DNA of 64,000 bases, from positions 3,358-67,357 of the forward strand of contig CANRAY010000004.1 of assembly GCA_947628735.1 (NCBI GenBank), given 5' to 3'. A program made the translations under genes and the position numbers. This stretch comes from an uncultured Clostridia bacterium (lineage in GTDB: Bacteria; Bacillota; Clostridia; TANB77; CAG-508). This document shows positions 1 to 40,640 of this stretch, piece after piece. The notes under the pieces are model-generated. The model was given only the letters and a program-made list of their open reading frames with translations, was not told where the DNA came from and ran no database searches. The first letter of the stretch is position 1. Each line of letters opens with the position of its first letter.

Positions 1-1
1 A

Positions 2-22463: not shown

Positions 22464-22478
22464 AAAAAGGAGAAGAAC

Positions 22479-23303: not shown

Positions 23304-23311
23304 GTGGTATA

Positions 23312-23737: not shown

Positions 23738-23741
23738 CGAT

Positions 23742-24197
23742 ATGGTAAAATCAGAAAGAGGTGTTACTTTAATTGCTTTAATTATATATATTGCTATGTT
23801 TATGATAATTATTGCTATTATGGGTACAATTAGTAATTATTTTTATAAAAATGTGACAGAAATTAAAGAGCCTTTGAAATATCCATCTGAATTAAATAAA
23901 TTTAACATGTTTTTTATTAATGACGTAAAGAAAAATCAAACAGCTATAACAAATGAAAATGGAACTAGTGTAAGATTTGAAGATGGCACAACTTATATGT
24001 ATTCAGCTGGCAAAATATATAGAGATGACGTTGAAATAGCTAAGAATGTTAAAGATGCAAAATTTTATATGGTAGATTCTTATTATGTAGGAGATGTAAA
24101 AAAGGAAATTGTAAATGTTCAGATTTGGTTTTTAAATGATCCTAGATCTGAAGAAGAAATTATAGAAGGAACAGATTATGTATTGAAATATTGGTAA
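23742..24197 (+). CDS. Minor pilin/pseudopilin, Glu5-less variant
   Basis: ERG|VTLIALIIYIAMFMIII. 151 aa. Starts 5 nt after the previous gene. Confidence 0.65.
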   Translation: MVKSERGVTLIALIIYIAMFMIIIAIMGTISNYFYKNVTEIKEPLKYPSELNKFNMFFINDVKKNQTAITNENGTSVRFEDGTTYMYSAGKIYRDDVEIAKNVKDAKFYMVDSYYVGDVKKEIVNVQIWFLNDPRSEEEIIEGTDYVLKYW

Positions 24198-24284
24198 ATA
24201 AATGTAAATTTATATTAAATCTATTCTTTTTAAAAGATATATAGTATAATTAAAAATAGATGAACAAAAGAAAGGAGTCATGTT

Positions 24285-25907
24285 ATGGATAAAAGACAAC
24301 CTTTAGGAATTGAATTAGTAAAAAGGGGAATTGTAACAGAAAGTGACATTGAGAAAGCTTTAGATTATCAAAAGGCAGAGCCAAGGAAAAAAATAGGAGA
24401 TATACTAAATATATTAAGATTGGCTGATCCATATGTTTTGATTGATGCAATAGGTGAAATTTTAGGAGAAAAAGCAATTTATTTAAGAGAAGCTGATATT
24501 AGAGTTAATATGTTAGACTATATTTCTTTAGATATTGCAAGACAAACAAAAGCGATTCCTTTTGAAGAAGATGGAGGACGAATAAAGGTATGTTTTGCAG
24601 ATACCAGTAACAGACGTTCTGTTGAGACAGTAAGATTGTTATTGCTTAATAAAGGTCTAGTAATGGAAAAATATATTACCTTCGAAACAAATATAGATAC
24701 AATTTTAAATTCATTAGAAGGTAGTTCTGAAAATATTAATATTACATCAGATGTATCTGGATTTTTGGATAGTGTTATTAAATCAGCAATGGAGAAACGT
24801 GCAAGTGATATTCATATTGAACCAATGCAAATGGGACTAAGAGTTAGGTACAGAATTGATGGTCAATTGATGACAGCTATTCAAATAGGTAATGATAAAC
24901 AAGCACAAATAATAGGAAGATTAAAAGCTATTTCAAATATGCATCAAGAAAAACAAGAGTCACAAGATGGTAGAATTATTTTATATCCTGATTATAATAT
25001 TCGTGTATCTTCACAAAAGAATATATATGGAGAGAAATTCGTTTTAAGATTATTGAAGAAAGATGCTGATGTTAGAGGTTTATTTGATTTAGGATTTCCT
25101 GATGATGATCAACTTATAAAAGATGCTTTTAATAAAAAGAATAGTATTACAGTTATTGCGGCACCAACTGGAGAAGGTAAAACAACTACTTTATATAGTA
25201 TTATAGATTTCTTAAATAGAAATGAAATCAATATAACAACAATTGAGGACCCAGTTGAAATTCGTATTAATGGATTAAATCAAATTGAAATCGATAATGT
25301 TAAAACAACATTTGCTAATTCATTAAGAACAGTTCTTAGACAAGATCCTGATATCATTCTAGTAGGAGAAATTAGAGATAATGAAACAGCAGAAATAGCA
25401 ATGCAAGCAGGTCAAACAGGACATTATGTTTTGTCAACAATACATACAATAGATGCAATTGAGGTTATTACTAGATTAAGAAAAATGGGAGTTTCAAATT
25501 ATGATATTTCTAGTACATTAGCAACAACAGTATCTCAAAGATTAGTAAGAAGGTTATGTCCAAATTGTGCTAAAGAAAGACCTTTTACAGATAAAGAAAT
25601 AGAAATTATGACTGAAATTGGAAATAAGTCTGGTGTGAAATTTGACTTTAAAGGGAAAACTACTTTTGATGCAGTTGGATGTAAGAAATGTAATAATACA
25701 GGTTACTATGGTAGAATTGGTATTTTTGAAGTATTAATTCTTAATGATGATATTAAAGAGTTGATTGTAAAAGATGCTTCACCACTAGAAATTAAAAAAG
25801 TTGCATTACAATCTGGATATTTACCATTAATTATAGATGGAATTAATAAAGTTTTATCTGGTATTACCAATTTAGAAGAACTAAATAATAAGTTAGCATT
25901 ATATTAA
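24285..25907 (+). CDS. pilB: Type IV pilus assembly ATPase PilB (GspE family)
   Basis: N-terminal GspII/MshEN-like domain, Walker A (AAPTGEGKTTT), Asp/His boxes and tetra-Cys zinc motif (CPNC...CKKC). Confidence 0.9.
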   Translation: MDKRQPLGIELVKRGIVTESDIEKALDYQKAEPRKKIGDILNILRLADPYVLIDAIGEILGEKAIYLREADIRVNMLDYISLDIARQTKAIPFEEDGGRIKVCFADTSNRRSVETVRLLLLNKGLVMEKYITFETNIDTILNSLEGSSENINITSDVSGFLDSVIKSAMEKRASDIHIEPMQMGLRVRYRIDGQLMTAIQIGNDKQAQIIGRLKAISNMHQEKQESQDGRIILYPDYNIRVSSQKNIYGEKFVLRLLKKDADVRGLFDLGFPDDDQLIKDAFNKKNSITVIAAPTGEGKTTTLYSIIDFLNRNEINITTIEDPVEIRINGLNQIEIDNVKTTFANSLRTVLRQDPDIILVGEIRDNETAEIAMQAGQTGHYVLSTIHTIDAIEVITRLRKMGVSNYDISSTLATTVSQRLVRRLCPNCAKERPFTDKEIEIMTEIGNKSGVKFDFKGKTTFDAVGCKKCNNTGYYGRIGIFEVLILNDDIKELIVKDASPLEIKKVALQSGYLPLIIDGINKVLSGITNLEELNNKLALY

Positions 25908-25931
25908 AAATGAAAACAGGGGGAAAAACAA

Positions 25932-27047
25932 ATGATAGATATGGATAAAGTTTTAAGGACAGCTCAGGAAAAGGATGCTTCTGACGTACATTTAATTTGT
26001 GGAATTAAGCCAACACTAAGAATTCGTAGAGAATTAGTTGATTGCCCAGAAACAGATGTATTAACAGAAGATGATATGGCAGATATTTATGATTATTTTG
26101 TAAGAGGTAATTTAGATAAAGATAAAGTATTTAAAGAAACTAAAAAATTAGATAGCTCTTTTGTATTTGGAGAATTACGTTTGAGGGTTAATATATCTCT
26201 TTCAAATGAAATACCAATTTTTACTCTTAGATTAATAAAAAATACATTACCAAAATATGAAGATTTAGGAGTTCCAGATGTTGTTAGAAGAACAACATAT
26301 CAACCTCAAGGACTTATCCTTGTAACTGGAAAAACAAACTCTGGTAAAACAACTACATTAAATGCTTTAATTAATGAAATAAATGAAACACAAAACAAAA
26401 AGATTTTAACATTGGAAAAACCAGTCGAGTTTAAACATACTAGTAAAAAATCAATTATTGTTCAAAAAGAAATTGGACCAGGTGGAGATTCTTTAACATA
26501 TAGTGATGGTGTAAAGAACTGTTTAAGAGAGGACTGTGATATTCTAGTAGTAGGAGAGATTAGAGATAAAGAGACTATGGAAGCAGCTATTGAAACTGCT
26601 GAATCAGGACATTTAGTTATTGGAACATTGCATACGAAATCTTGTGCAGAAACTATAGACAGAATGGTTAACTTTTATGAAATAAGAGATCAACAACAAA
26701 TTAAATATTTAATTTCATCACTTTTGAAATTAGTTATTGCACAGAGATTGTTACCAGCTAGAGATGGTTCTTTAGTATTAGTACCAGAAGTTATGGTAGT
26801 AGATAATATTATTTCAGGTATTATACGTAAAGAAAAAATAAGTGTTGCTGAAATAGAAGATGCTATTCAAAGTAATAGTGAAAAAGGAAGTATAAGTTTA
26901 ATAAATTCTATTGCTCAATTATTTGTAGATGATATAATTACATTAGATCAAGCAAAAGCACAAATAGAGGAGAAAAATATAGAAATTTTAAATAGAACAA
27001 TTATGCAATTAAAAATCAAAAAAGAAAAAAGATCAACAACAATGTAA
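25932..27047 (+). CDS. pilT: Twitching-motility retraction ATPase PilT
   Basis: ASDVHL...PTLRI N-terminus, Walker A (GKTNSGKTTT), and the size (371 aa) and layout of the PilT family. Confidence 0.88.
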   Translation: MIDMDKVLRTAQEKDASDVHLICGIKPTLRIRRELVDCPETDVLTEDDMADIYDYFVRGNLDKDKVFKETKKLDSSFVFGELRLRVNISLSNEIPIFTLRLIKNTLPKYEDLGVPDVVRRTTYQPQGLILVTGKTNSGKTTTLNALINEINETQNKKILTLEKPVEFKHTSKKSIIVQKEIGPGGDSLTYSDGVKNCLREDCDILVVGEIRDKETMEAAIETAESGHLVIGTLHTKSCAETIDRMVNFYEIRDQQQIKYLISSLLKLVIAQRLLPARDGSLVLVPEVMVVDNIISGIIRKEKISVAEIEDAIQSNSEKGSISLINSIAQLFVDDIITLDQAKAQIEEKNIEILNRTIMQLKIKKEKRSTTM

Positions 27048-27081
27048 ATTCGTTTTATAATGACGAGAAAAGGAGGGAAAA

Positions 27082-28446
27082 ATGCCAGAATATGTTTATC
27101 GTGCAGTAACTTCTAAGGGGCAAATAGTTAGAAACAGAGTGGAAGAAGCCAGCAAAAATACTTTAGTAAAAAAACTGAAGAGTAATGATATGTTACCTAT
27201 TAGTATTGTTCAAGTAGGCTTAATGGGAAAAAAGATTGGTAATAAGAAACAAAATAAAAGAAATATGATAGATATTAATGAAATTATGACACAGGCTGAT
27301 TCATCAAGTATTTTGCAAGGTAAAGCTCAATTAAAACCATCTTTTAAAGAAAGAGTCAATTTGTTAATTGCAAAAGATGAGAAGATTACTATTCAGGATG
27401 TAATTATTTTTACACAGAATTTTTACTTATTAAAAAAGGCCAACTTTAATAATATTCATGCATTAAGTACAATTATAGAAAGTACAGATAATTTATCTTT
27501 AAGAGGTGTTTTGCAGGATATTTTAGCAGGAGTTGAAGGTGGAGAATATATGTATGTTACGATGGAATATTATTCTAACATCTTTCCATACATATACATA
27601 AATATGATTAAAGTAGGAGAACTATCTGGAAATTTAACACAATCTTTGGAACAAGCTGTTAAATATTTGGAAACTTCTTCGAAAACGCAAAAAACATTAA
27701 GAGGAATTATTGTACCAAATTTACTTCAATTATTAATGATATTAGGTTTATTAATATTTGGTGTAGCATATATTATTCCATTAATTCAAGATGCATTCGC
27801 ACAGTCAGGAACAACAGCACAATTACCTGGTATTACACTGTGGTTTGTTGATTTTTGTAATGTGCTTATGGCAAATTGGTATATACCAGTTGTTATTATT
27901 GCAGGAATTGTGGCGATTATTGTTACTTATGTCAATACTCCAAAAGGAAAATATCAATTTCATTATTTTAAATACACAATGCCAGTTTTCGGAAAATTAA
28001 TTTTCGCAATGGATTTTTCAAGATTAATGAAAGCAATGCTTCTAAACCTACAAAATGGAATGAGAATACAAGATGCTTTGGAAGTAGGCAAATCTGTTAT
28101 AAAAAACTATGTTTTGTTGTCTATTATTGAAACAGCAATTAACAATATTTTAATAGGTACTTCATGGATAGAGCCATTTGAAAAGTCTGGATTATGTTCT
28201 TCAATGCAGACTGAGATGCTTAAAATAGGTATGCAAACTGATTTACCAGAAATGATGGAAAAATTAGTAGAATACATGGATATTGAAATTAATAATCAAA
28301 TGCAAAGAGTTATGAAGGTATTACCACAAATCGTATATTCTATTGTTGGTATATTCTTAATTTTCTTAGTACTTGTTATTATCGTACCTTGTGTTCAATT
28401 ATATATGGGAGATTGGATTTTCGACGCAGTGGATTTACCTATGTAA
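27082..28446 (+). CDS. pilC: Type IV pilus platform protein PilC (GspF family)
   Basis: Two GspF repeats, each with paired TM segments. 454 aa. Confidence 0.88.
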   Translation: MPEYVYRAVTSKGQIVRNRVEEASKNTLVKKLKSNDMLPISIVQVGLMGKKIGNKKQNKRNMIDINEIMTQADSSSILQGKAQLKPSFKERVNLLIAKDEKITIQDVIIFTQNFYLLKKANFNNIHALSTIIESTDNLSLRGVLQDILAGVEGGEYMYVTMEYYSNIFPYIYINMIKVGELSGNLTQSLEQAVKYLETSSKTQKTLRGIIVPNLLQLLMILGLLIFGVAYIIPLIQDAFAQSGTTAQLPGITLWFVDFCNVLMANWYIPVVIIAGIVAIIVTYVNTPKGKYQFHYFKYTMPVFGKLIFAMDFSRLMKAMLLNLQNGMRIQDALEVGKSVIKNYVLLSIIETAINNILIGTSWIEPFEKSGLCSSMQTEMLKIGMQTDLPEMMEKLVEYMDIEINNQMQRVMKVLPQIVYSIVGIFLIFLVLVIIVPCVQLYMGDWIFDAVDLPM

Positions 28447-28561
28447 AAATAAAAGTAAATATAAGAAAGCGAGTAATCATTATAATATTTGGTTACTTGC
28501 TTTTTTGTGTAATTTGCATTATTATATTTTTAGTAAAATGAAATCAAAGGATGGAAATGGT

Positions 28562-29455
28562 ATGAAAGTAGGTATAGATATTGGGGGAAGTCATATTTCA
28601 ATAGGACTAGTAGAAGACGGAAAAATAATTCAAAAGTTAGAGCAAGATATTCAAAATTATGATGATATACAAGAATTTCTTGTGAATTATGTGGATAAAG
28701 GACTAGAAAAATTCAGTGAAATTGCAGATATTTCGTCTATTGGAATTGCTGCACCGGGAAATCCTGATGGATGCACTATATTTAATTTAGTAAATTTGGG
28801 TATAGAAAAGGTTGACTTTGGATTTATAGAAGAAAAATATCATTTAAAAATAAAATCAATAAATGATGGAAAAGCATCAGGATTAGCAGAAAAGAAGTAT
28901 GGAGCAATGAGAGAGTTTAGAGATAGTGTATTTTTGTGTTTAGGAACAGGTATTGGTGGAGCAGTATTTTTAAATGATCAATTATTGTTAGCTAATCGAA
29001 ATCCTGGATTTGAACTAGGACATATGATTATTGAAAAAAACGGAAAACAGTGTAAATGTGGGAAAAAAGGATGTTTTGAAACATATTGTTCTATGAAACG
29101 TTTTAAAGAAAATGTTGTACAAATATTACAAGAAATAGGAGTATTAGTTTCAGTAGAAGATGCATCTAATATTGTTGTACAATTAAAGGCAAATATAGAA
29201 AATCCAAAATTAAATCAATTAGTGGAGAATTATATTAATGATATGATAATAGGATTATCTAATATTATTGATATATTTGAACCAGAAGGAATTGTATTAG
29301 GTGGTAGTTTTGTATACTTTAAAGATATATTATATAATAGATTAATAGATGAAATGTCACAACGTAGATATGTTTTTAATCATAATTATTTACCAAAGAT
29401 AGAATTAGCTGAGCTGCAAAATGATGCTGGGTTAATTGGAGCTACATTAATATAA
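28562..29455 (+). CDS. ROK-family sugar kinase (glucokinase-like)
   Basis: MKVGIDIGGSHI start. ROK zinc motif (CKCGKKGCFE). Start chosen at the ATG that has an SD. The ORF-track extension overlaps pilC. Confidence 0.8.
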   Translation: MKVGIDIGGSHISIGLVEDGKIIQKLEQDIQNYDDIQEFLVNYVDKGLEKFSEIADISSIGIAAPGNPDGCTIFNLVNLGIEKVDFGFIEEKYHLKIKSINDGKASGLAEKKYGAMREFRDSVFLCLGTGIGGAVFLNDQLLLANRNPGFELGHMIIEKNGKQCKCGKKGCFETYCSMKRFKENVVQILQEIGVLVSVEDASNIVVQLKANIENPKLNQLVENYINDMIIGLSNIIDIFEPEGIVLGGSFVYFKDILYNRLIDEMSQRRYVFNHNYLPKIELAELQNDAGLIGATLI

Positions 29456-29483
29456 AATGAGATATGTAATAGAAGGAATGAAA

Positions 29484-30524
29484 ATGAAGAAAAAAATTGG
29501 TAAATTGTTCTTGATAATAATGGGAATTAGCATACTTTTAGGAGTGGGATATATTATTTATCAAAATAATGTTAATAAAACAGTTAGTGTAATGCAGTTA
29601 GAAGAAAGTCCTAAAAATGATGCGCCTCCTGTTATTTGTTTGAAAGGAGAAAAAGAAATTACATTAAATGAAGGAGAAAGTTATCAGGAACAAGGATATT
29701 CTGCAATAGATGAAGAAGAAGGAAGTATTGTTAAAAAAGTAAAAATTGAAAGAGAGGAAATTGATAAAGATAAATATAAATTAATTTATACAGTTAAAGA
29801 TTCATCAGGTAATGAGGCGAAAGAAGAAAGAATTGTAAAAATAAAGAGAAAAAATAAATCAAAAGGAGAAAAGAATAAAGAGGAAAAGAAAAATAATAAA
29901 GGAATTATTTATTTAACTTTTGATGATGGTCCTTCAAGTAATACATCTAAAATATTAGATATATTGAAAGAGGAAGGAGTAAATGCAACATTCTTTTTGC
30001 TAAATTATAGTGATGAACAAGAAAATTTAGTAAAAAGAGAAGTAGCGGAAGGTAATGCGATTGGTATTCATGGATATTCTCATGACTATGGTAAAATTTA
30101 TAAATCGGTAGATAGTTATATGGAAAATTTGGATAAGTTGCAAGAAAAAATATATAAATCAACTGGAGAAAAAACTACGATTACTAGATTTCCGGGAGGT
30201 AGTTCTAATACAATTAGTGATTTTAATCCTGGAATTATGACAAAACTTTCTAAAGAGGTTGAAAAACGTGGATATCAATATTGTGATTGGAATGTAGATT
30301 CTAATGATGCAGGTGGTTCAGATAGTGAAAATGAAATTTATAAAAATGTTGTTAATGGTTTATTTAAGAATGGAAGAAATGTTGTATTGATGCATGATGC
30401 AAATGGAAAAGGAGCAACGGTTAAGGCTTTGAAAAAAATCATTAAATATGGTAAAGAAAATGGTTATTCTTTTCAAGTAATTACACCAGAAACAGAGATG
30501 GTTCATCATGGAATTGCTAATTGA
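29484..30524 (+). CDS. Membrane-anchored polysaccharide deacetylase (NodB homology) with an Ig-like DUF5011 domain
   Basis: TM helix. The DUF5011-like segment is GYSAIDEEEG...YTVKDSSGNEA. The NodB motifs are TFDDGPS and HGYSHDY. Confidence 0.8.
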   Translation: MKKKIGKLFLIIMGISILLGVGYIIYQNNVNKTVSVMQLEESPKNDAPPVICLKGEKEITLNEGESYQEQGYSAIDEEEGSIVKKVKIEREEIDKDKYKLIYTVKDSSGNEAKEERIVKIKRKNKSKGEKNKEEKKNNKGIIYLTFDDGPSSNTSKILDILKEEGVNATFFLLNYSDEQENLVKREVAEGNAIGIHGYSHDYGKIYKSVDSYMENLDKLQEKIYKSTGEKTTITRFPGGSSNTISDFNPGIMTKLSKEVEKRGYQYCDWNVDSNDAGGSDSENEIYKNVVNGLFKNGRNVVLMHDANGKGATVKALKKIIKYGKENGYSFQVITPETEMVHHGIAN

Positions 30525-30605
30525 AATTTACTAAAAAAGTAGTTGAAAAATAAAAAAAGATAATATATAATAAAAGGTGAGAAAACATAAGAGGAGGAAT
30601 AAAAA

Positions 30606-32498
30606 ATGAATACAAAATCAACATTTAGGAAAAATGCAAACGATTACTTGACACATACCCACGGAAAAAACGGAATTACGTTAATAGCATTAGTAGTAAC
30701 TATAGTAGTACTAATTATATTAGCGGTAATAAGTATTAATGGAGTATTTGGAGAAGATGGATTAATAGCAAGTGCAGAAAGAGGAAGTATAGAACATACT
30801 CATGCAACAGTGTGGGAAGCAATGGAGATGGAATACTCAAATTACTGGATAGATAAAGTAAATATAGGTGGAGATCTAATTACATATTTGCAGAGTGAAG
30901 ATAGAAATATAATAGGAAAAGAATTACAAGGAACAGGATATGTAATAAATGTAGAGAATTTATTAGGAACAAGAATGTCATTGGGAAATGGAACAGATGG
31001 AAACAATGATGTGTACAAACTAGAACCATTATCAACAGGAGAAGCGAATATTACAAAAGTAGCTTCAACAGGAGAAAATATAAAATTAGCGGAAGAAAAT
31101 AAAGAAGAAAGCGAATATCAAGTAAAATATTATGGCCCAAGTGGAGAAAGAAAACTAGGAATATTAGGAGATAGCATAAGTAGTGAAGTAAAAGTAGAAA
31201 ATGAAAATCTTGATATAACAAAAGGACTAGCTACTAGCCCAGCGCCAAAGGAATATTATTTGGTAGGAGATCAAATTCATTATGAGATAAGAGTAGAAAA
31301 TATAGGCGATGTAGAAATGACTGATATTTATATAAAAGATGAGCTAAATACAAAGGAAAGTGAAGAACCATATACTCCAGGAAATAAATTGATACTAGAA
31401 GGTAATAATAGTGGTAAAGTACAGGCAAAAGACAATCAATGGTATATAGAAGAATTAGGAGTAGATGAAGAAATAATATTTAATTATTATTATACAGTAC
31501 AGAAAGAGGATGTAGGAGAACCAATAAAAAATGCGATAACAAGTTTAACAGGAACTCCAAAACCAATACCAAAAGGACATAAAATACCAGAAGTAGAGGT
31601 ACAAGTACCAGTAGTAGGAAGTGTACCAGTTAAAAAGATATTACATATGACACGATGGGAAGATAATATTGAGGGAAATTATGAAGAATATTTGAATCTA
31701 GCTTGCTTACATCCTAGATTTGAACTTTACAAAGGTGATGAAATGGTTGGTTTTATTACTATCGACTTAGTTTCCACTCATTTGTGGGTTCATCCGGATG
31801 GAATGGAATGGCCGTCAGAACCTGTTTCTGAGGAATATGAAAAGACTGGTACCTTTACGAATATTCCAGTCGGAGAGTATAAATTGAAGGAAACTACCAC
31901 TATACAATATTATGCTGCGGGTCATGAACATACACATGATGAAAGGATTTATGATGTTTCAGTTTTGTCGGAAACTGAAACTGAGATAAAACTTAATAAT
32001 GAAGTGAAGCAGACAGCAGAATTTGAGGATACATGTTGTGCTATAAAACGTATATATATACCAAAAGGATGTGTGGCTGGCCCAAGAAGCTTTGCGGTCC
32101 ATGTAAGTTGGAAAGGCTGGGAAGATGAATCTAGTCATCCCGTATTAGGTAAGGACATTATAATAAAATGGGAAAAGACGACTGTGTGGTACGGAACAGG
32201 TGTTTCTAATAAAGAAATCGTTTGGAATATTGATGACAATAGTAGAATTGAAGGAGAAGATGGATGGTATGAAAGTATAAAAGAATGCTGGACTTATACT
32301 CCGATAACTATACAGAATGCCTCGGGGGAACAGGTTAAATATGGGACAATGACGGATGAGTCTTCTAATAATTTAACTTTAAAATTAGATAATGGTGATA
32401 ATGTTAAAATTACAATGGATTCAGAATGTGATCGCAGTAAAATTTGGGGGAATAGTAGAGAAGTTTTAGCTTGTATCCTGATTGAAAAGATAGATTAA
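30606..32498 (+). CDS. Large (630 aa) pilin-like adhesin with a Glu5-less prepilin signal, DUF11/CnaB-type domains and a Cys-rich C-terminus
   Basis: 23-aa leader, then G|ITLIALVVTIVVLIILA. The DUF11-like repeat is YYLVGDQIHYEIRVENIGDVEMTDIYIKD. The CnaB/prealbumin-like segment is GTFTNIPVGEYKLKETT. About 8 Cys lie in the last 200 aa. GC content and codon usage shift upward from ~31700. Confidence 0.7.
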   Translation: MNTKSTFRKNANDYLTHTHGKNGITLIALVVTIVVLIILAVISINGVFGEDGLIASAERGSIEHTHATVWEAMEMEYSNYWIDKVNIGGDLITYLQSEDRNIIGKELQGTGYVINVENLLGTRMSLGNGTDGNNDVYKLEPLSTGEANITKVASTGENIKLAEENKEESEYQVKYYGPSGERKLGILGDSISSEVKVENENLDITKGLATSPAPKEYYLVGDQIHYEIRVENIGDVEMTDIYIKDELNTKESEEPYTPGNKLILEGNNSGKVQAKDNQWYIEELGVDEEIIFNYYYTVQKEDVGEPIKNAITSLTGTPKPIPKGHKIPEVEVQVPVVGSVPVKKILHMTRWEDNIEGNYEEYLNLACLHPRFELYKGDEMVGFITIDLVSTHLWVHPDGMEWPSEPVSEEYEKTGTFTNIPVGEYKLKETTTIQYYAAGHEHTHDERIYDVSVLSETETEIKLNNEVKQTAEFEDTCCAIKRIYIPKGCVAGPRSFAVHVSWKGWEDESSHPVLGKDIIIKWEKTTVWYGTGVSNKEIVWNIDDNSRIEGEDGWYESIKECWTYTPITIQNASGEQVKYGTMTDESSNNLTLKLDNGDNVKITMDSECDRSKIWGNSREVLACILIEKID

Positions 32499-32520
32499 TA
32501 TACTAGGAGATATTGAAAAA

Positions 32521-32985
32521 GTGGAAGATAAAAAGAAGGAAAGTGCTGGTTTGAAAATTGTTTCGTTTGGAGTTATTGTTGTATTAATTGCAATAATAGC
32601 AATTAGTATATATTTTATATATACTAATTTTCAAACAAAACAATATGAGGAAAGCACAGAAAATGAAACAAATAGAGATATAATAGATTTAACAGAGGAA
32701 AATTTTCAAGCAGAGGTACAATCTGATAAACAGGTTTTGGTTTATTTTGCTGCAGATTGGTGTAGAGATTGCCAAAATATGGAACCAATTATAGAAGAAA
32801 TTAATCAGACAGGTGATTATGCGAAAATATGTAGGGTTAATACAGATGAGCAGATAGAATTAAGAGAAGAATATGAAATTGAATTGATACCAACTTTTAT
32901 TTTATTTGAAGATGGACAAGAAGTAAGGAGAAAGGTTGGAGAAATACCAAAAGAAGTATTGGAAGAAATATTTTTGGATTATTAA
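32521..32985 (+). CDS. Membrane-anchored thioredoxin-family protein (GTG start)
   Basis: N-terminal TM helix. Thioredoxin fold with active site WCRDC. AGGAGA SD 10 nt before the GTG. Confidence 0.85.
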   Translation: MEDKKKESAGLKIVSFGVIVVLIAIIAISIYFIYTNFQTKQYEESTENETNRDIIDLTEENFQAEVQSDKQVLVYFAADWCRDCQNMEPIIEEINQTGDYAKICRVNTDEQIELREEYEIELIPTFILFEDGQEVRRKVGEIPKEVLEEIFLDY

Positions 32986-33008
32986 TAAAAGATTGAAATT
33001 TGATGTAT

Positions 33009-33037
33009 TTGACAAAATCTATAAAAAATAGTATAAT
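33009..33037 (+). promoter_or_regulatory. Consensus sigma-A promoter (TTGACA-17-TATAAT) about 300 nt upstream of rnj
   Basis: Exact TTGACA, a 17-nt spacer, and exact TATAAT. Confidence 0.5.
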
Positions 33038-33261
33038 AATGTTCAGTTGTTACCAAAATAAGGTAAAGATGAGATTTATATAGAATATTTATTTTTAGAG
33101 AAAGAAAAAGAAATAAATATAAAATATTGTAAATTATTTAGAGCGGAAAATTAAAATATTTTTTATAGAGAAATAAAAGAAAAGAATATATTTTATGGTC
33201 GTTGTAATAAAATATATTTTGTCATGTTTTTGTTATTAGATTAAATATTTTATTGTTTTTT

Positions 33262-33296
33262 AGGTAGTTTATAGTATTAAACTACCTTTTTCGTTT
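33262..33296 (+). terminator. Intrinsic terminator/attenuator hairpin within the rnj leader
   Basis: AGGTAGTTTA-tagtat-TAAACTACCT, a perfect 10-bp stem followed by TTTT. Lies 42 nt before the rnj start codon. Confidence 0.5.
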
Positions 33297-33337
33297 TATC
33301 TATATAAATACTATTTCAATAGGAAAGGAATAAAAAA

Positions 33338-35188
33338 ATGAGTGAACAAGAGAATAATATTCAGAAGAAAAAGGAAAGGGTTGCTAGGCCGAGAACAACT
33401 AAAAAGACTGTAAATAGAACTCAAACTCAAACTAAAACAGCACAGACAGAGGAGGTAAAAGAAGAAGTAAAGAAGACAACTCAAACAAGAAGGAGAACAA
33501 CAAAGAGTACAACTCCAAAGTTTGAATATAAAAGAGATAATTTAAAGATTATACCTTTGGGTGGATTAGATGAAATAGGAAAAAACATTACTGTTTTTGA
33601 ATATGGAAATGAGATTGTTCTTGTAGATTGTGGTTTAGAGTTTCCAGAAGAAGATATGCTAGGAATAGACATGGTTATACCAGATGTAACATATTTAGAG
33701 AAAAATAAAGAAAAAATTAAAGGTTTAGTAGTTACACATGGTCATGAGGATCATATAGGTGCTATTCCATATTTATTAAATAAAATAAATGTGCCAATAT
33801 ATGCTACTAAATTAACTTTAGGTTTAATTAGAAATAAGTTAGAAGAACATAAATTAGCATCATCTACACGATTAATTATGGTGGAACAAGGACAAACAAT
33901 TCATTTTGGAAATATTCGTGTTGAATTTATTAGAAGTAATCATAGTATTCCAGATTCTGTAATGCTTGCAATTCATACACCAGCAGGATTAGTAGTTCAT
34001 ACAGGAGATTTTAAAGTAGACTATACCCCAATAGATGAACAATTAATGGATTTTGCGAGACTTGCTGAATTAGGAAAAATGGGAGTTGTTGCATTACTTT
34101 CTGATAGTACAAATTCTGAAAGAAAAGGATATACAATGTCAGAAAGTTCTGTAGGAGAAGTATTTGATAGATTGTTTATGAATAATCATAAAAGAATTGT
34201 TGTAGCAACATTTGCTTCTAATGTTCACCGTGTGCAACAAATTGTAAATTCTGCTGTTAAATATGGTAGAAAAATAGCTGTATGTGGTAGAAGTATGATT
34301 AATATGATTGAAACAGCAAGAAGTTTTGGATATATAGATGCTCCAGATAATCTTTTTATAGATATTGATATGATTAAAAATTATACAGATGAGCAATTAG
34401 TTATTATTACAACAGGAAGCCAAGGAGAAGCTATGTCTGCTTTAACAAGAATGGCATCAGGAGAACATAAAAAAGTAGAAATTACACCAAATGATATGGT
34501 TATTATTTCTGCTACTCCAATCCCAGGAAATGAAAAATTAGTTTCTAATGTTATTAATGATTTAATGCAAATTGGAGCAGAAGTTATTTATAGTGCCTTA
34601 GAAGATATACATGTTTCAGGCCATGCTTGTCAGGAAGAGCAAAAATTGATTTTAGCATTAACAAAACCTAAATTTTTTATACCAGTACATGGTGAATATA
34701 GACAATTAAGAGCACATGCGGAAACTGCTAAGAAAATGGGTGTTCCAACAGAAAATATATTTATTTTATCAAATGGTAGAGTATTAGAAGTAAATAAGCA
34801 AGAAGCTAAAATTACATCTTCTGTACCATCTGGAAAAATCTTGGTAGATGGATTAGGAGTAGGAGATGTAGGAAATATAGTTCTTCGTGATAGACAACAT
34901 TTATCTCAAGATGGATTAATTGTTATTGTTATGACAATGGATTCAAGTACAGGTGAAATTGTATCAGGACCAGATGTAGTATCAAGAGGTTTCGTATATG
35001 TTCGTGAATCTGAAAATTTAATGGAAGATGTTAAAAAAGTAGTTCGTGATCAAGTAAGACAGTTAGAGGCACAAGGAATTAGTGATTGGTCAACAATCAA
35101 ATCAACATTAAAAGATAATTTAAGAGATTATATTTTCCAAAGAACAAAGCGCAACCCAATGTTGTTACCTATAATTATGGAAATATAG
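33338..35188 (+). CDS. rnj: Ribonuclease J (beta-CASP metallo-beta-lactamase RNase) with a Lys/Thr-rich N-terminal extension
   Basis: HGHEDHIGA motif, beta-CASP motifs and a C-terminal domain. About 60 aa of basic, Thr-rich sequence precede the conserved LKIIPLGG start. Confidence 0.92.
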   Translation: MSEQENNIQKKKERVARPRTTKKTVNRTQTQTKTAQTEEVKEEVKKTTQTRRRTTKSTTPKFEYKRDNLKIIPLGGLDEIGKNITVFEYGNEIVLVDCGLEFPEEDMLGIDMVIPDVTYLEKNKEKIKGLVVTHGHEDHIGAIPYLLNKINVPIYATKLTLGLIRNKLEEHKLASSTRLIMVEQGQTIHFGNIRVEFIRSNHSIPDSVMLAIHTPAGLVVHTGDFKVDYTPIDEQLMDFARLAELGKMGVVALLSDSTNSERKGYTMSESSVGEVFDRLFMNNHKRIVVATFASNVHRVQQIVNSAVKYGRKIAVCGRSMINMIETARSFGYIDAPDNLFIDIDMIKNYTDEQLVIITTGSQGEAMSALTRMASGEHKKVEITPNDMVIISATPIPGNEKLVSNVINDLMQIGAEVIYSALEDIHVSGHACQEEQKLILALTKPKFFIPVHGEYRQLRAHAETAKKMGVPTENIFILSNGRVLEVNKQEAKITSSVPSGKILVDGLGVGDVGNIVLRDRQHLSQDGLIVIVMTMDSSTGEIVSGPDVVSRGFVYVRESENLMEDVKKVVRDQVRQLEAQGISDWSTIKSTLKDNLRDYIFQRTKRNPMLLPIIMEI

Positions 35189-35267
35189 AAAAAGTTTGAA
35201 GTAATAAAAGAAATAGAGTATAATAAAGTGGAATTGCAAAAAAGTAAAATTGAAGGAGCGATAACTT

Positions 35268-36911
35268 ATGAATTATAAAGATTTAGCAGATGTAGTTTTT
35301 CCAGATGCAAAACCAATTGAATATTATGAAGAAAAATATCCAGAGAGAAATTTACCAGAAGGTGCTATTGTTGCAAGATTTGCACCAAGTCCTACAGGTT
35401 TTGTTCATATAGGTGGTTTAATGCAATGTGTTATTGATAGACAAATAACTAGTCAAACAAACGGAGTATTTATTTTAAGAATTGAAGATACAGACCAAAA
35501 GCGTGAGATAGAGGATGGAGTTAATCAAATTGTAAATTCTGTTCATGATTTTGGTATTGAATTTGATGAAGGAATGTTAAATGAAACTGAGGAAAAAGGA
35601 AATTATGGTCCTTATAAACAAAGTGAAAGAAAAGAAATTTATCAAGCTTATGCAAAACATTTAATTGAGCAAGGAAAAGCATATCCTTGTTTTGCAACTA
35701 CAGAAGAATTGGAAGAAATGCGTGAAAAACAAGAGGCTGCTAAAATAAGACCTGGATATTATGGGGTTTGGGCAAAATATAGAAATTTACCTGTTGATGA
35801 AGCAATTGCTAAAATAAAAAACGGAGATTCTTTTATTGTTCGTTTTAAATCAATGGGAAATGAAGAAAAGAAAATTAGACACCATGATGTAATTAAAGGA
35901 AATATTGACTTCCCAGAAAATGATCAAGATATTGTTATTATTAAAGCTGATGGTCTTCCAACTTATCATTTTGCTCATGCAGTTGATGATCATTTAATGA
36001 GAGTAACTCATGTAATTCGTTCAGATGAATGGGTATCTTCTATTCCTTTACATTTAGAGTTATTTAAAGCTTTAGAATTTAAAACACCAAAATACTGCCA
36101 TTATGCACCAATTTTAAAAGATGATGATGGTAAAAAGAGAAAAATTAGTAAAAGAAAAGATCCTGAAGCAGCAGTTAGCTATTATCATGAAGAGGGAATA
36201 CCTGCACAAGCCGTTTGTGAATACTTAATGAATATAGGAAATTCAAATTTTGAATTATGGAGAAAAGCAAATCCTAATGCAGATGTTTCAGAATTTAAAT
36301 TTGAAATTAATAAAATGAGTGTAAGTGGAGCAGTTTTTGATATTGTAAAACTTTTGGATGTTTCTAAAAATGTTATTTCTAAATATTCAAAAGAAAGACT
36401 TTATGATGAAGTATACGAATGGTCAAAACGTTATGATTCTGAGTTAAAGGCTTTATTAGAAGAAGATAAAGAATATGCATTAAAGGTGTTTGGAATTGAA
36501 AGAGAAAGTGCAAAGCCTAGAAAAGATATAGGTAAGTGGTCTGATGTTAAGAATGCAATAATTTATATGTTTGATAATAAATTTTTTGAGAATGATGTTG
36601 AATATGATTATGCTAAAATTAATGATTCAGAAGAAATTAATAAAATCATTAATAGATATGTAGAAAAATATTTTGATATTTCTGATGATAAGCAAACTTG
36701 GTTTAACAAAATAAAAGATTTGGCTGAAGAAATGGGATATGCAAGAGAAGTAAAGGAATATAAAGCAGAACCAGAAAAATGGCCAGGACATGTAGGAGAT
36801 ATTAGTACAGTTATTCGTGTAAAATTAACAGGTAGACAAAATACTCCAGATATGTATGAAATTATGCAAGTATTAGGAAAAGAAAGTGTAATTAAAAGAT
36901 TAACTAGATAA
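35268..36911 (+). CDS. gltX: Glutamate--tRNA ligase (class I, GluRS-type)
   Basis: HIGH-type motif PTGFVHIGG and KMSKS-type KISKR. At 547 aa it is longer than the typical GluRS. Confidence 0.8.
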   Translation: MNYKDLADVVFPDAKPIEYYEEKYPERNLPEGAIVARFAPSPTGFVHIGGLMQCVIDRQITSQTNGVFILRIEDTDQKREIEDGVNQIVNSVHDFGIEFDEGMLNETEEKGNYGPYKQSERKEIYQAYAKHLIEQGKAYPCFATTEELEEMREKQEAAKIRPGYYGVWAKYRNLPVDEAIAKIKNGDSFIVRFKSMGNEEKKIRHHDVIKGNIDFPENDQDIVIIKADGLPTYHFAHAVDDHLMRVTHVIRSDEWVSSIPLHLELFKALEFKTPKYCHYAPILKDDDGKKRKISKRKDPEAAVSYYHEEGIPAQAVCEYLMNIGNSNFELWRKANPNADVSEFKFEINKMSVSGAVFDIVKLLDVSKNVISKYSKERLYDEVYEWSKRYDSELKALLEEDKEYALKVFGIERESAKPRKDIGKWSDVKNAIIYMFDNKFFENDVEYDYAKINDSEEINKIINRYVEKYFDISDDKQTWFNKIKDLAEEMGYAREVKEYKAEPEKWPGHVGDISTVIRVKLTGRQNTPDMYEIMQVLGKESVIKRLTR

Positions 36912-36961
36912 TAGCACATAATTATTTTATAAAATAATATGATAGAGAGAAAGAGAATAAA

Positions 36962-37099
36962 TATGGAATATAATGTAGGAGATGTTGTTCAAACTAAAAA
37001 ACAACATCCGTGTGGTAGTAAGCTATGGGAGATAACAAGAGTGGGTGTTGATTTTAAATTGAAATGTTTAGGATGTCGGACATGTTATATTATTAGATA
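36962..37099 (+). CDS. DUF951-family small protein (45 aa)
   Basis: MEYNVGDVVQTKKQHPCGSKLWEI...CLGCRTCYIIR matches the DUF951 pattern as I recall it. Below the ORF-track cutoff. Confidence 0.55.
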
Positions 37100-37152
37100 G
37101 GCCTAAGGCCTTAAAAATGATTGTAAAGAAAATAGAAAATTAAATATTTTAC

Positions 37153-37190
37153 ATTGAAAAGCCCCCGATGCAAAGCACCGGGGGTTTATC
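37153..37190. terminator. Bidirectional GC-rich intrinsic terminator
   Basis: CCCCCGATGC-aaa-GCACCGGGGG (one mismatch), with TTTAT on the + side and CTTTTC on the - side. Confidence 0.7.
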
Positions 37191-37257
37191 GTGGGCACTC
37201 ACAGAGTTACCCGTGGTTGGAAGTTACATGTAATGAGCTTGGGTTATACTTATGCCT

Positions 37258-37518
37258 TCAAGCGTTTCCACGCGAGGCCAGGTAGTAACCACCCAACTCG
37301 TTAGCCCTCTTTTCGAGGGCACTGAAGACGGAAATGCGGCAGCCGATCTTCCAGGTTACCAGAACCTGGTTGCTGACGCGGGACAAGGAACCGTCACCGC
37401 TCAGCGGATGCTGGGCATATGCCACGTTCGGGTTGTGGTTGGCTTCGAAAAGGAAGCTGTCAGCTACCTTTGGATCATCGAAGATGAACCGTGATGCTCT
37501 TTTTACTTGCTTGGACAT
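37258..37518 (-). CDS. Anomalous GC-rich (~55% GC) small ORF (86 aa) of unknown function; could instead be a structured RNA
   Basis: On the - strand it is preceded by a GGAAGGGGGA SD 9 nt before the ATG and a perfect sigma-A promoter, and it is followed by a terminator. Codon usage (CGC, GGC, CTG, AGC) is foreign to this genome. The other - frames contain stops. Confidence 0.4.
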   Translation of the reverse strand: MSKQVKRASRFIFDDPKVADSFLFEANHNPNVAYAQHPLSGDGSLSRVSNQVLVTWKIGCRISVFSALEKRANELGGYYLASRGNA

Positions 37519-37582
37519 TAATCATGTCCCCCTTCCGATAATGTATTTTTTTGCCATACACAAAATGCGTATAACGTATTAA

Positions 37583-37611
37583 ATTATAATATAAAATAGA
37601 GAATAAGTCAA
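37583..37611 (-). promoter_or_regulatory. Perfect consensus sigma-A promoter driving the GC-rich island
   Basis: On the - strand: TTGACT, then 17 nt, then TATAAT. The GC-rich body starts about 55 nt downstream. Confidence 0.55.
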
Positions 37612-37626
37612 GATGTACATTATATA

Positions 37627-38208
37627 TCATATATATTTTTGGATTTCATTCCATACATCTTCAGTGTAAATTTTTCTTTCTGCAGAAAAGGGAAGAAATG
37701 TTAAATCGTGAATAGGATTTAATATCTCTTGTAAATTAGCTATAGCTGAATTGACTTTTGTTATTGCAATCTTATCGGCTTTATTTGCAATAATGAAACA
37801 AGGCTTTCCGTTTCTTATAATATAATCATACATTAATTTATCATTTTCAGTTGGGTTATGACGAATATCAATTAAGAATATTATTAAACATATATTTTTA
37901 CTTGTTTCAAGATATTCCTCAATGAAATGACCTACTTTTATTTGTTCTTCTTTTGACATCTTGCTGTATCCATAACCAGGTAAATCAACAAAATAAAATT
38001 TTTCATCCATATTATAAAAATTAATTTGTCTAGTTTTTCCAGGTTCACTACTTGTTCTTGCTAATTTTTTTCGGTTAACAAGAGTATTAATAAAAGAAGA
38101 TTTTCCTACATTTGACTTACCAACTAAAACAATTTGTGGTAAATTATCATTAGGATATTGAGAAGTAGATACTGCTGAGATTTTAAATTCAGGATTTTTA
38201 ATTAACAT
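37627..38208 (-). CDS. engB: Ribosome-biogenesis GTPase YsxC/EngB
   Basis: G1 motif GKSNVGKSS, G3 motif DLPGYG and G4 motif NKADK. 193 aa. Confidence 0.9.
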   Translation of the reverse strand: MLIKNPEFKISAVSTSQYPNDNLPQIVLVGKSNVGKSSFINTLVNRKKLARTSSEPGKTRQINFYNMDEKFYFVDLPGYGYSKMSKEEQIKVGHFIEEYLETSKNICLIIFLIDIRHNPTENDKLMYDYIIRNGKPCFIIANKADKIAITKVNSAIANLQEILNPIHDLTFLPFSAERKIYTEDVWNEIQKYI

Positions 38209-38213
38209 ATATA

Positions 38214-39026
38214 TTACCTTTCTTTTTCTAATTCTTCTTCTAAATATATATCAATAATATTAGATATATTTTTATTTGTTTGTTGCAATTGTTCATTAAT
38301 ATGTCTTAAATCAGTTTTGGGTGTACGATTAATAAATTGACAAAGAGTGTCTATTGATTTGGCACATAATTCTTGAAAATTTTGCAAATTAGTAAAATCT
38401 GCTAAAAAGGCCTCTTCGTCTAATTCTCTGGTAGCAGTATAATGTATGATTTGTTTTGATAGATTCTGTAAAGTAACACTTGCAGGTATGTATTCAGAAG
38501 CCATAGAATATTTCATAAAATTCTTTTTGAATCTGTCATAATGAAGTTGACTTCCTTCTACAATAGATCCGTCCATTACTACAGGAATAGAATGTTTGGA
38601 TGTATAATAATCACTTATAAGATCTCTTAGTGAGTATAACTTTTGAGGAACAGGGTGATTAGCTATATTATATAAATAATAAAAGTCTTTAGCGGTCATG
38701 AATATAACAGACGAAAAAGTTACTCCTTCTTTATTTGCTAAATATATTCCATCTGGTTGAAAAACAGTATAGGTATTTCCATCTGGATTACTCATGCGAG
38801 AGAAAAGTACAGATAATGTATCATTGCCATCATCACGATATAATGAACAATCTCCATTTGCAAAACAGTATTCCTCAACTATTTTTCTATCATTTACATC
38901 ATATATCATTGTGTCTTGAAAATCGTCTTCTGCAATATCTGAGTATTGCTCCTTACTAATTCCATCAGGAACGAATACTACATCTTTTCTTACGTGAAAA
39001 AAACTATATCTTTTAGATTTATTCAT
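38214..39026 (-). CDS. Hypothetical protein (270 aa), operonic between serS and engB
   Basis: No recognisable motif. Starts 5 nt from engB, and serS is 23 nt upstream. Confidence 0.45.
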   Translation of the reverse strand: MNKSKRYSFFHVRKDVVFVPDGISKEQYSDIAEDDFQDTMIYDVNDRKIVEEYCFANGDCSLYRDDGNDTLSVLFSRMSNPDGNTYTVFQPDGIYLANKEGVTFSSVIFMTAKDFYYLYNIANHPVPQKLYSLRDLISDYYTSKHSIPVVMDGSIVEGSQLHYDRFKKNFMKYSMASEYIPASVTLQNLSKQIIHYTATRELDEEAFLADFTNLQNFQELCAKSIDTLCQFINRTPKTDLRHINEQLQQTNKNISNIIDIYLEEELEKER

Positions 39027-39049
39027 TATTTAACATCCTTATTTAATAT

Positions 39050-40336: not shown

Positions 40337-40640
40337 GTTTTTCCTCCTTTTGGGTCTGTGCAAGATAAACAAAAAACTCGCTCTTATTTGCATAAGGGCG
40401 AGTCTATATCTCACGGTACCACCTTAATTATTTAATCTAATGATTAATAACTCTATAATGCTTATAACCTAGCATCACTCGGTTCTATTTTCATAAAAAG
40501 CTTTAAAAGTAGATTCATAAATTCTTTTAAACTATTTTCACCATCCATAGTCTCTCTAAATAAAAGTTAATTTACTACTAATCTTTTATCAAACGCTTTA
40601 TGTATATTAATAACCAATATTCTAACATCTTTTTTTCAAA
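40337..40640 (-). promoter_or_regulatory. T-box riboswitch leader of serS
   Basis: The - strand contains AATTAAGGTGGTACCGTGAG (T-box consensus AGGGTGGNACCGCG). This is followed by a terminator hairpin (CTCGCCCTTAT...ATAAGAGCGAG) and TTTTTTG, immediately upstream of serS. Confidence 0.7.

Follow-up and report, generated by a model that had tools for sequence, protein, structure and literature searches.

Type IV pilins that carry bulky extra domains have been defined as modular pilins, among them PilB and PilC of Streptococcus sanguinis, CofB, TcpB and GspK (Raynaud et al. 2021, PMC8179133). We compared with them a pair of adjoining genes in a 64,000-nucleotide (nt) stretch of DNA from an uncultured Clostridia bacterium (contig CANRAY010000004.1; the whole stretch is called the window). 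The first open reading frame (ORF) of the pair (30606..32498, + strand, ATG start) encodes a 630-amino-acid (aa) pilin-like protein, and the second (32521..32985, +, GTG start), which follows after a gap of 22 nt, encodes a 154-aa thioredoxin (Trx) with a transmembrane (TM) anchor. Both had been singled out in a first-pass annotation made from the letters of the sequence; its observation was confirmed with small corrections, and its interpretation was partly supported. We put a little above an even chance the reading that the first gene encodes a modular adhesin of the type IV pilin class and the second a thiol-disulfide oxidoreductase that works outside the cytoplasm, privately for the head of that adhesin.

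In its plan, the 630-aa protein resembles the modular pilins: a small N-terminal pilin module is followed by a short linker and by bulky domains that are not specific to pilus biology, its predicted role is adhesive, its predicted location is the tip, and its gene lies in or beside a pilus machinery cluster. Unlike them, it has no glutamate at position +5 of the mature N-terminus (Glu5), is missed by the N_methyl/IPR012902 signature that defines that set, and has a leader of 23 aa. Its extra modules also differ, being immunoglobulin (Ig) domains of the isopeptide type known from sortase pili plus an orphan domain. Furthermore, its C-terminal part (the head) is co-inherited with a thioredoxin gene, and its N-terminal part (the stem) is common to a recombining multigene family. 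With sortase pilins and MSCRAMM B-repeats it shares tandem CnaA-like (CLIPPER) and CnaB-like beta-sandwiches with conserved Lys/Asp-or-Glu/Asn triads, whereas it has neither LPXTG nor a pilin motif and would be exported and anchored by its N-terminal type IV pilin module.

Oxidoreductases that support pili are also known. DsbA/TcpG is needed with type IV pili in diderms, as are TrbB/TraF in F-type conjugative pili. The oxidoreductase MdbA is described as serving sortase pili in Actinobacteria (PMC5478893, PMC9974433), and BdbDC as serving the ComGC pseudopilin of Bacillus subtilis (Meima et al. 2002, cited in PMC7212644). Like these enzymes, the Trx of the window is proposed to be an extracytoplasmic enzyme of the Trx fold that aids the oxidative folding of a pilus subunit. 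The known ones, however, are general or system-wide and in most cases DsbA-like, and none is known to be inherited jointly with a single substrate domain; the window enzyme differs in its classical Trx fold, its C[RK]DC active site and its tie to a single head module. Another parallel is PedC/BrcD (TIGR01295; PMC4919988), a TM-anchored Trx-fold protein encoded beside the one exported, cysteine-bearing product that it serves. The similarity to it is weak (PedC_BrcD E 1.8e-5; a PedC-like Pfam family is listed for homologues), and in the differences we count a score of 24.6 bits against a cut-off of 120 and a substrate that would be a pilin of 630 aa where PedC/BrcD serves a small peptide. The soluble TrxA proteins of gut Clostridia (such as Coprococcus thioredoxins, P0192) are about 50% identical and have the same cis-Pro loop; the window Trx departs from them by a TM anchor with an acidic linker and by C[RK]DC in place of CGPC, and where they have the buried Asp of VDFWA, the anchored proteins have Tyr or Cys. 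Modular pilins and oxidoreductases supporting pili are known already; what is new here is the Glu5-less stem family, the cassette of head plus candidate catalyst, and recombination at the level of the junctions.

A conserved junction between the head and the thioredoxin gene

In the window, the stop codon of the pilin gene, 22 nt that include AGGAG, and the GTG of the Trx gene make up a short junction. The closest relative in the collections is a rabbit-gut metagenome-assembled genome (MAG), 'uncultured Clostridia bacterium Lapin-030__bin49'. The junction is nearly invariant between the window and loci L009 and L004, and is found with a 14-nt deletion in L002. In L009, the 3' end of the syntenic orthologue P0004 is followed by the same 22 nt and by a Trx (P0125) that is 68% identical to that of the window. 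In L004, the 3' end of P0003 and the same junction lead into the first 11 Trx codons, at which the contig ends. In L002, the deletion behind P0002 takes the GTG, and about 25 Trx codons are still recognisable before the sequence decays. This locus also has an intact Trx gene (product 55% identical, WCKDC) immediately upstream of P0002, between P0002 and a gene for an SGNH/GDSL hydrolase (L002:4543-6051; 502 aa, 4 Cys) that itself begins with the same pilin leader and helix. A Trx, present or former, lies behind the conserved junction in 4/4 full-length gene copies of the head. We found no Trx in the flanks of P0021, which carries another head, or of the tandem MBG_2 paralogues P0023 and P0025.

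No terminator-like site was found between the pilin and Trx genes of the window. Past the Trx stop, a consensus scan placed a perfect promoter ahead of rnj, which may mark the downstream limit of a pilin-Trx unit. Cotranscription of the Trx with rnj, which the first-pass annotation had named as the case against a link to the pilin, is not what this arrangement points to. Membership of the Trx in an rnj operon was dropped, given that consensus promoter after the Trx gene and the intact pair at a locus without rnj on its contig.

The protein itself, described beforehand as a TM-anchored WCRDC thioredoxin with a GTG start and a 22-nt gap, is just that. PF00085 matches aa 54-149 (E 2.7e-24; 85.6 versus a cut-off of 23.5 bits) and the cis-Pro stands in IPT. 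It has the fold, the CXXC and the cis-Pro loop of the Trx family, and its closest PDB matches are thioredoxins; the TrxA equivalog model TIGR01068 is not reached (85.7 versus 96.8 bits). Assignments to ResA, StoA and DsbE were also tried and rejected, with scores below the cut-offs (39.6 versus 170, 25.5 versus 210 and 23.4 versus 123 bits), as was PedC/BrcD on the score given above. There is no room for a helical insert of the DsbA type, as the match to positions 2-99 of the 103 of the Trx profile is contiguous in the 154-aa protein.

A profile search of 5.8 billion clusters returned only three TM-anchored members, after which scores fell from 284 to 134 bits. The next relatives are soluble thioredoxins of gut Clostridia, 102-105 aa long, with VDFWA.WCGPC where the anchored three have V[YC]F..WC[RK]DC; across the full Trx domain, identity between the window Trx and soluble TrxA is about 50%. 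This narrow distribution, together with the present or former occurrence of the gene at all four copies of this head and its absence beside the paralogues with other heads named above, supports the earlier proposal of a dedicated oxidoreductase. In each of the three anchored proteins, a single TM segment is preceded by a Lys-rich flank and followed by an acidic one. The positive-inside rule would thus place the Trx domain on the outside, and the cytoplasmic orientation raised in the annotation is disfavoured on the same rule. On the simplest reading, the anchored Trx would have arisen by duplication of TrxA, with gain of an anchor, loss of the buried Asp and a change in the dipeptide of its CXXC. 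Alterations of this sort shift the redox properties of Trx-fold proteins.

The candidate substrate, the head (aa 338-630, 293 aa), is all-beta in an AlphaFold2 (AF2) model built on a 28-sequence alignment, with a mean predicted local distance difference test score (pLDDT) of 72. Domain 1 has the CnaB-type fold of PF17802 and PF05738, with PVGEYKLKE, conserved K343/K344, E373, N/D464 and Cys367, and an HxHD motif (442-445). The closest structural matches are sortase pilins and MSCRAMM B-repeats (Spy0128, FctB, RrgA/RrgB, BcpA, SpaA, SdrD). The CnaB/SpaA threshold of Pfam is not reached (PF17802, 16.5 versus 23.1 bits); the CnaB/prealbumin-like domain read from the sequence at first holds by fold. 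Domain 2, an orphan beta-sandwich in the model, carries Cys477, 478, 489, 561, 608 and 623 and ends in ILIEKID. All seven cysteines of the protein (these six and Cys367) are in the head and the stem has none; Cys367, 477, 489 and 561 are invariant among the four full-length homologues. Cysteine makes up 2.4% of the head, 1.15% of 30 window proteins and 0% of the stem, and within the pilus locus of the window it is confined to this head, the three small pilins being free of it. The annotation had spoken of a Cys-rich end with about eight Cys. Its placement was right, the count is seven with four conserved, and the term "Cys-rich" was generous.

The Glu5-less stem family and the composition break

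The pilin gene has AGGAGG 8 nt ahead of its ATG. The N-terminus of the protein reads MNTKSTFRKNANDYLTHTHGKNG followed by ITLIALVVTIVVLIILAVI (KNG/ITLIALV), with Gly at -1, a hydrophobic stretch of 19-21 residues (mean Kyte-Doolittle 3.44), which is the sole hydrophobic segment of the protein, and Ala at +5. A hydrophilic leader ending in Gly before about 21 hydrophobic residues, as here, is what class III signals show. The leader is basic and long (23 aa), and nearly the same leader occurs in P0058 and in a window paralogue (40846..41904). Ala is found at +5 in 22/23 aligned relatives, Ser in one and Glu in none. The Glu5-less prepilin signal noted at the outset is therefore real, though it is not special to this ORF: among the five pilin-like genes found in the window, four have Ala, including a 76-aa candidate major pilin, and one has Asp. 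Against the N-termini of MshA and Geobacter PilA, the profile of the family aligns in register (E 0.012-0.4; MshA 0.012), and the small pilin of the cluster has the same N-terminal motif. A literature search with the motif GITLIAL turned up no paper. The paralogue at 40846..41904 (+) lies 8 kb downstream, outside the pilus cluster. It combines the near-same 23-aa leader with a GITLIALV helix and is 52% identical over the first 75 aa; its remainder is unrelated, without a Pfam domain, and has 6 Cys, with no thioredoxin nearby.

In the AF2 model, the pilin module shows the long helix on an antiparallel sheet that is expected of pilins (helices 26-48 and 52-87; strands 111-114, 136-141, 171-176 and 182-187; pLDDT mostly 60-89), and it has residues that are invariant across 28 relatives. 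The genetic association of pilins with a prepilin peptidase, an assembly ATPase and a platform protein is found too, and is syntenic in the MAG locus L001. The next domain is of the CLIPPER/DUF11 family, above threshold as the first-pass annotation had suggested for a DUF11-like domain (28.3 versus 24.6 and 31.7 versus 27 bits for PF01345 and PF24346; TIGR01451, 26.6 versus 24). According to recent work (PMC12617251), domains of this family are CnaA-like isopeptide domains. K206 (28/28 relatives), D245 (26/28) and N309 (25/28) are conserved, with a spacing near that of K715/D748/N806 of 9IFR (PMC12617251); a PDB sequence search with the CLIPPER segment did not match 9IFR. In the linker, pLDDT falls below 50 at aa 320-334. 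A sortase anchor was considered and dropped, as there is no LP.[TSA]G anywhere in the 630 aa and the C-terminus is ...ACILIEKID. With a pilin module, a linker and at least one domain non-specific to pilus biology, the protein fits the published definition of modular pilins (Raynaud et al. 2021, PMC8179133), and from sequence and model we describe it as a putative modular type IV pilin-like adhesin with a shaft in the style of sortase pilins and an orphan head.

Over aa 1-337, about 27 proteins are alike (some 34-66% identity); beyond it they carry unrelated heads (SpaA, Cna_B, DUF5979, DUF7619, MBG_2 and unknown types). Alignability with most relatives stops at the linker. Remoter relatives keep the pilin module alone and add LRR_5, Big_2, DUF285, RCC1 or FN3 modules, and hundreds of proteins share just the first 60-190 residues, with modules that are unrelated, an SGNH hydrolase among them. 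Between P0003 and P0004, two paralogues of the MAG, nucleotide identity is 100% across about 750 nt of the stem (window residues ~92-325); it is 72-85% 5' of this tract and falls to 46-77% once the linker is reached. For P0002 and P0004 the figures are 87-93% in the second half of the CLIPPER domain and 40-60% after it. On these comparisons, the stems appear to be homogenised or exchanged, with a breakpoint at the linker.

A break in composition, which the annotation had placed at about 31700, is real, and the profile is not uniform: synonymous codon usage differs between stem and head (chi-square 97.3, df 37, p 2.6e-7), with the optimal change point at codon 352 (nt 31662), 14 codons into the head. 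The shift in total GC is modest (0.313 to 0.357). It is mainly synonymous, the GC content of third positions (GC3) going from 0.142 to 0.256, their A content (A3) from 0.593 to 0.324 and their T content (T3) from 0.264 to 0.420. Stem and head both fall outside all 451 background segments of 286 codons in the window (GC3 max 0.21; A3 0.37-0.52). The chief change is from A-ending to T-ending codons, sharpest in Val (GTA 25:3, GTT 0:12). As for the codons named in the annotation as newly appearing, CCG, TCG and CGC do so, GGC is unchanged and GCG falls. This codon-usage break coincides with the domain boundary, the end of family alignability and the recombination breakpoint of the paralogues, and it bears out the idea of a module grafted on a pilin stem.

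Lateral acquisition of that module, also proposed in the annotation, is unproven. That the head is a foreign module lately imported from a GC-richer organism, and that transfer alone explains the break, seems to us somewhat unlikely. The island is sharply bounded in GC3 and A3; the rise in GC3 is specific to the type of head, with 0.36-0.40 in the three copies that the MAG has of this one (0.10-0.20 in neighbouring genes) and 0.29 in the other head of P0021. The fold resembles sortase pilins of other Gram-positive bacteria, and heads are evidently exchangeable, as in the P0003/P0004 tract. However, MBG_2 heads (GC3 0.17) show no rise, the Trx gene inherited alongside has a native composition (GC3 0.155, A3 0.471), and no donor or outside homologue emerged from three large searches. 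An exhaustive phmmer search of 1.84 billion representatives returned for the head only the window protein (P0001), the fragment P0121 and two weak motif-level matches; a scan of 185,579 species-representative genomes found it only in the rabbit-gut MAG; and a scan of JGI metagenomes gave no head and one distant locus for the stem. Known homologues of the head are limited to the window genome, the MAG and the one fragment. The four copies are mutually only 40-44% identical in protein, and their synonymous sites should therefore be saturated. One old transfer with later amelioration would not account for this pattern: the copies all keep GC3 above the host level, unlike the linked Trx genes. The break is moreover in part a property of the stem, since the stem is itself atypical in the opposite direction, with a high A3 (0.59-0.66) in every member examined. 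The raised GC3 may come from repeated import from an unsampled pool, from GC-biased conversion in a recombining cassette or from codon selection.

Genomic setting and other features of the window

The window is chromosomal, has about 28% GC and carries sporulation genes (DpaA, YqfD). The pair forms the 3' end of a pilus gene cluster on the + strand, whose A24_N_bact, T2SSE (x2) and T2SSF genes lie 2-8 kb upstream of the pilin gene on the same strand. Genes for a ROK kinase and a CE4 polysaccharide deacetylase separate the machinery from the pilin, the CE4 gene being directly upstream of it, and RNase J (rnj) and GltX are encoded downstream of the Trx gene. The pilus gene order is preserved in L001 of the rabbit-gut MAG, with 94% identity for PilB, 93% for PilT and 89% for PilC, and only 46% for the large pilin, the head being its fast-evolving part. 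Coordinates are collected in the table.

Table. Positions of the pilin-thioredoxin pair, its parts and the pilus genes in the window
Feature	Position	Strand	Basis or remark
Promoter-like site TTGAAA-17-TATAAT, 11/12	30543..30571	+	Consensus scan, consensus match only; lies in the 81 nt that precede the pilin gene
Leader peptide, aa 1-23, MNTKSTFRKNANDYLTHTHGKNG, Gly-terminated	30606..30674	+	Sequence
Pilin module, aa 24-195: N-terminal part of helix alpha1 ITLIALVVTIVVLIILAVI, long helix, four-stranded sheet	30675..31190	+	AF2, family profile
CLIPPER/DUF11 (CnaA-like Ig) domain, aa 196-320	31191..31565	+	PF24346, PF01345, TIGR01451 above cut-off
Pro/Lys/Glu-rich linker, aa 321-337, PKGHKIPEVEVQVPVV	31566..31616	+	Stem/head junction, recombination breakpoint
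Compositional island, ~880 nt	31617..32495	+	GC3 0.256, A3 0.324; flanked by stem and Trx gene
Head domain 1, CnaB/prealbumin-like beta-sandwich, aa 338-470	31617..32015	+	
Head domain 2, orphan beta-sandwich, aa 471-630 and stop codon	32016..32498	+	AF2
Conserved head-Trx junction: TAA, TATACTAGGAGA (ribosome-binding site), spacer to GTG	32496..32520	+	
Membrane-anchored Trx, N-tail MEDKKKESAGLK	32521..32985	+	Pfam, NCBIfam and PDB Trx matches, hydropathy
TM segment of Trx, aa 13-33	32557-32619	+	Hydropathy; acidic linker follows
WCRDC of Trx, aa 80-84	Cys codons 32761-32763, 32770-32772	+	
Promoter TTGACA-17-TATAAT, perfect	33009..33037	+	Consensus scan; past the Trx stop, ahead of rnj (33338)
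Type IV pilus machinery	19251..28446	+	Upstream of the pilin gene; Pfam T2SSE, MshEN, T2SSF, A24_N_bact; pilin-type N-termini
Two unassigned membrane-associated ORFs	within 19251..28446	+	Part of the pilus machinery region
76-aa pilin	22117..22347	+	Pilin-type N-terminus
Prepilin-peptidase homologue	22479..23303	+	A24_N_bact (Pfam)
Two minor pilins	23312..23737; 23742..24197	+	Pilin-type N-termini
PilB-like	24285..25907	+	
PilT-like	25932..27047	+	
PilC-like	27082..28446	+	

The 76-aa ORF, which begins MLNNQKG followed by ITLVALVVTIVILIILA, has a strong ribosome-binding site and a hairpin with a T-run past its stop, and is 62% identical to a 71-aa ORF of the rabbit-gut MAG (L001:1323-1538). 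It is a candidate major pilin with Ala at +5, barely more than an alpha1 helix in the style of Geobacter PilA-N. In the peptidase homologue, Pfam found only the N-terminal A24_N_bact domain (E 2.4e-30), and the catalytic Peptidase_A24 domain gave no Pfam match at E <= 0.1; this partial match and the Glu5-less pilins suggest a divergent subtype of type IV filament. Carbohydrate esterases recur beside these adhesins, namely CE4 in the window and the SGNH/GDSL hydrolase in L002 of the MAG, and hint at acetylated polysaccharides.

Between the Trx gene and rnj there is an AT-rich spacer of 350 nt (32986..33337; GC ~0.17-0.24), with a terminator-like hairpin (33262-33287) just before the rnj start. 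It could be a regulatory leader for RNase J. Rfam had no match in 30400-33500, so that no riboswitch or leader was recognised between Trx and rnj, and over the whole 64 kb (1..64000) we found no tRNA gene and no Rfam family at gathering score. Genes such as gltX and serS, among others, often carry T-box or other leaders.

Elsewhere in the window, a sharp GC-rich island at 37150..37530 (GC 0.40 in a 600-nt bin versus 0.28 for the window) holds an 86-aa ORF (37258..37518, -) without a Pfam match and a GC-rich hairpin at ~37160-37190, and looks foreign to the genome. The highest GC3 of all window ORFs (0.31, above that of the pilin head) belongs to a WG_beta_rep ORF (55379..55819, +). TauE/SafE is represented by two adjoining ORFs (6301..7051, +) in permuted order, the first matching profile positions 130-236 and the second 2-116. 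An agr-type quorum-sensing pair consists of AgrB (49842..50447, +) and a GHKL histidine kinase (50697..52049, -).

Proposed mechanism, alternatives and meaning

According to the reading that we favour, the 630-aa protein would insert in the membrane through its class III-like signal and would be cleaved after Gly23 by the prepilin-peptidase homologue of the adjoining cluster. The pilus machinery would display it, most likely as a tip subunit, since in known systems the tip complex is capped by a subunit without Glu5 (PMC10191384). Outside the cell it would form a rod of the CLIPPER (CnaA-like) and CnaB-like domains, both probably locked by isopeptide bonds, with the orphan beta-sandwich at the end as the likely binding surface. 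The Trx, tethered to the outer face of the membrane, may form or reshuffle the disulfides of the head as the head emerges. Recombination between the stem and a head/Trx cassette at the linker would yield a family of adhesins with one stem and many heads.

Several points weigh against this reading. The absence of Glu5 does not single out the 630-aa protein as the tip subunit, because four of the five pilin-like genes of the window have Ala; the N_methyl signature (PF07963 / TIGR02532) had no match at E <= 0.1 with Pfam or E <= 0.01 with NCBIfam; and of the peptidase homologue Pfam recognises only the N-terminal domain. The rabbit-gut MAG contains at least seven members of the stem family, more than is usual for minor pilins. 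CcdA, DsbD, DsbB and VKOR were all missing among the window ORFs scanned with Pfam, and the differing head of P0021 has seven Cys yet no Trx neighbour. P0002 and P0003 end early by +1 frameshifts near their 3' ends (L002:8330-8560; L004:5380-5440), the rest of the head to ...LIEKIN and the stop being readable in another frame; they may be pseudogenes or the product of MAG or assembly errors. The 100%-identical tract could in part be an assembly artefact as well (exact repeats, short reads, chimeras), and the evidence base consists of two related uncultured genomes with fragments and short contigs.

Some of these points would find their place if the protein were displayed at the surface and not in a pilus, the Glu5-less N-terminus being a general export and anchoring module and the protein a stand-alone tethered adhesin whose head the Trx still serves. 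Class III signals act in export and anchoring for many archaeal surface proteins. We consider this rather unlikely: in two genomes the gene keeps its synteny with the pilus cluster, PilB, PilT and PilC are intact and highly conserved, and the predicted pilin module has the full helix-plus-sheet fold, beyond a TM helix. Set against this are the hundreds of proteins that share the first 60-190 residues only, with modules as unrelated as an SGNH hydrolase, the second such protein 8 kb downstream of the pair and outside the pilus cluster, the seven or more members in one MAG, the missing match to the N_methyl hidden Markov model and the atypical peptidase homologue. Modular pilins with enzymatic or adhesive modules are known to assemble in pili (PMC8179133).

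The other two alternatives concern the Trx. It might act as a reductant that keeps the Cys of the head, or a His/Cys metal site, reduced or repaired after exposure to oxygen in the gut. This appears distinctly unlikely, given that neither the buried Asp nor the Gly-Pro dipeptide, which tune Trx as a reductant, has been kept, and that an even number of invariant Cys (four) in an exported domain of all-beta fold usually points to structural disulfides. The Trx is nevertheless of the classical fold, with about 50% identity to soluble TrxA and a cis-Pro loop (IPT) like that of reductases, and has no DsbA-type insert, and the conserved HxHD motif of the head could bind metal together with H347 and H499. 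The host is probably an anaerobe, and no partner that would regenerate an oxidant was seen among the window ORFs scanned, where an electron donor of the CcdA/DsbD type is likewise absent. We hold it to be very improbable that the Trx is a coincidental neighbour, that is, a housekeeping oxidoreductase of the ResA/StoA/DsbE type of a spore-former that happens to lie between the pilin gene and rnj. The sporulation genes of the window and a weak NCBIfam similarity to ResA, StoA and DsbE speak for it, but these models stay far under their cut-offs, the junction with the head is kept in four copies at three or more different loci, and one intact pair lies between two pilin-leader genes with no rnj on the contig.

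Part of the best explanation is that the head and the Trx gene behave as one cassette which recombines onto a conserved stem at the linker. A more specific version can be offered only tentatively, and we rate its probability as low: a lineage of gut Clostridia would recombine a self-contained, swappable cassette of head and Trx onto a homogenised Glu5-less pilin stem, using the ...EVQVPV.GSV.VKKILH linker region as 5' handle and the ILIEKI-TAA-ribosome-binding site-GTGGAAGAT junction as 3' handle.

Modular pilins explain how simple filaments gain new functions. To our knowledge, the mechanism by which bulky, covalently cross-linked modules are folded outside a Gram-positive anaerobe is not known. 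In the present locus, a substrate is encoded together with its candidate catalyst, and the two are inherited as a unit. Cysteine tends to be kept out of exported proteins, at least in aerobic Firmicutes (PMC2823432). The candidate catalyst seems to derive recently from ordinary TrxA by three discrete changes (anchor, CXXC dipeptide and loss of the buried Asp), and the scope is narrow, with two uncultured genomes. The two genes form a compact, testable pair for studying how a reductase scaffold may be converted to extracytoplasmic folding. They also offer a way into a large family of pilin-like surface proteins without Glu5 that is present in gut metagenomes, lacks annotation and is missed by signature-based surveys. 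If the swappable cassette is real, it would amount to a system of adhesin variation in which a Cys-bearing head is accompanied by a folding catalyst of its own. This would be part of a divergent system of type IV filaments that would also serve as a general surface-display route for dozens of unrelated modules.

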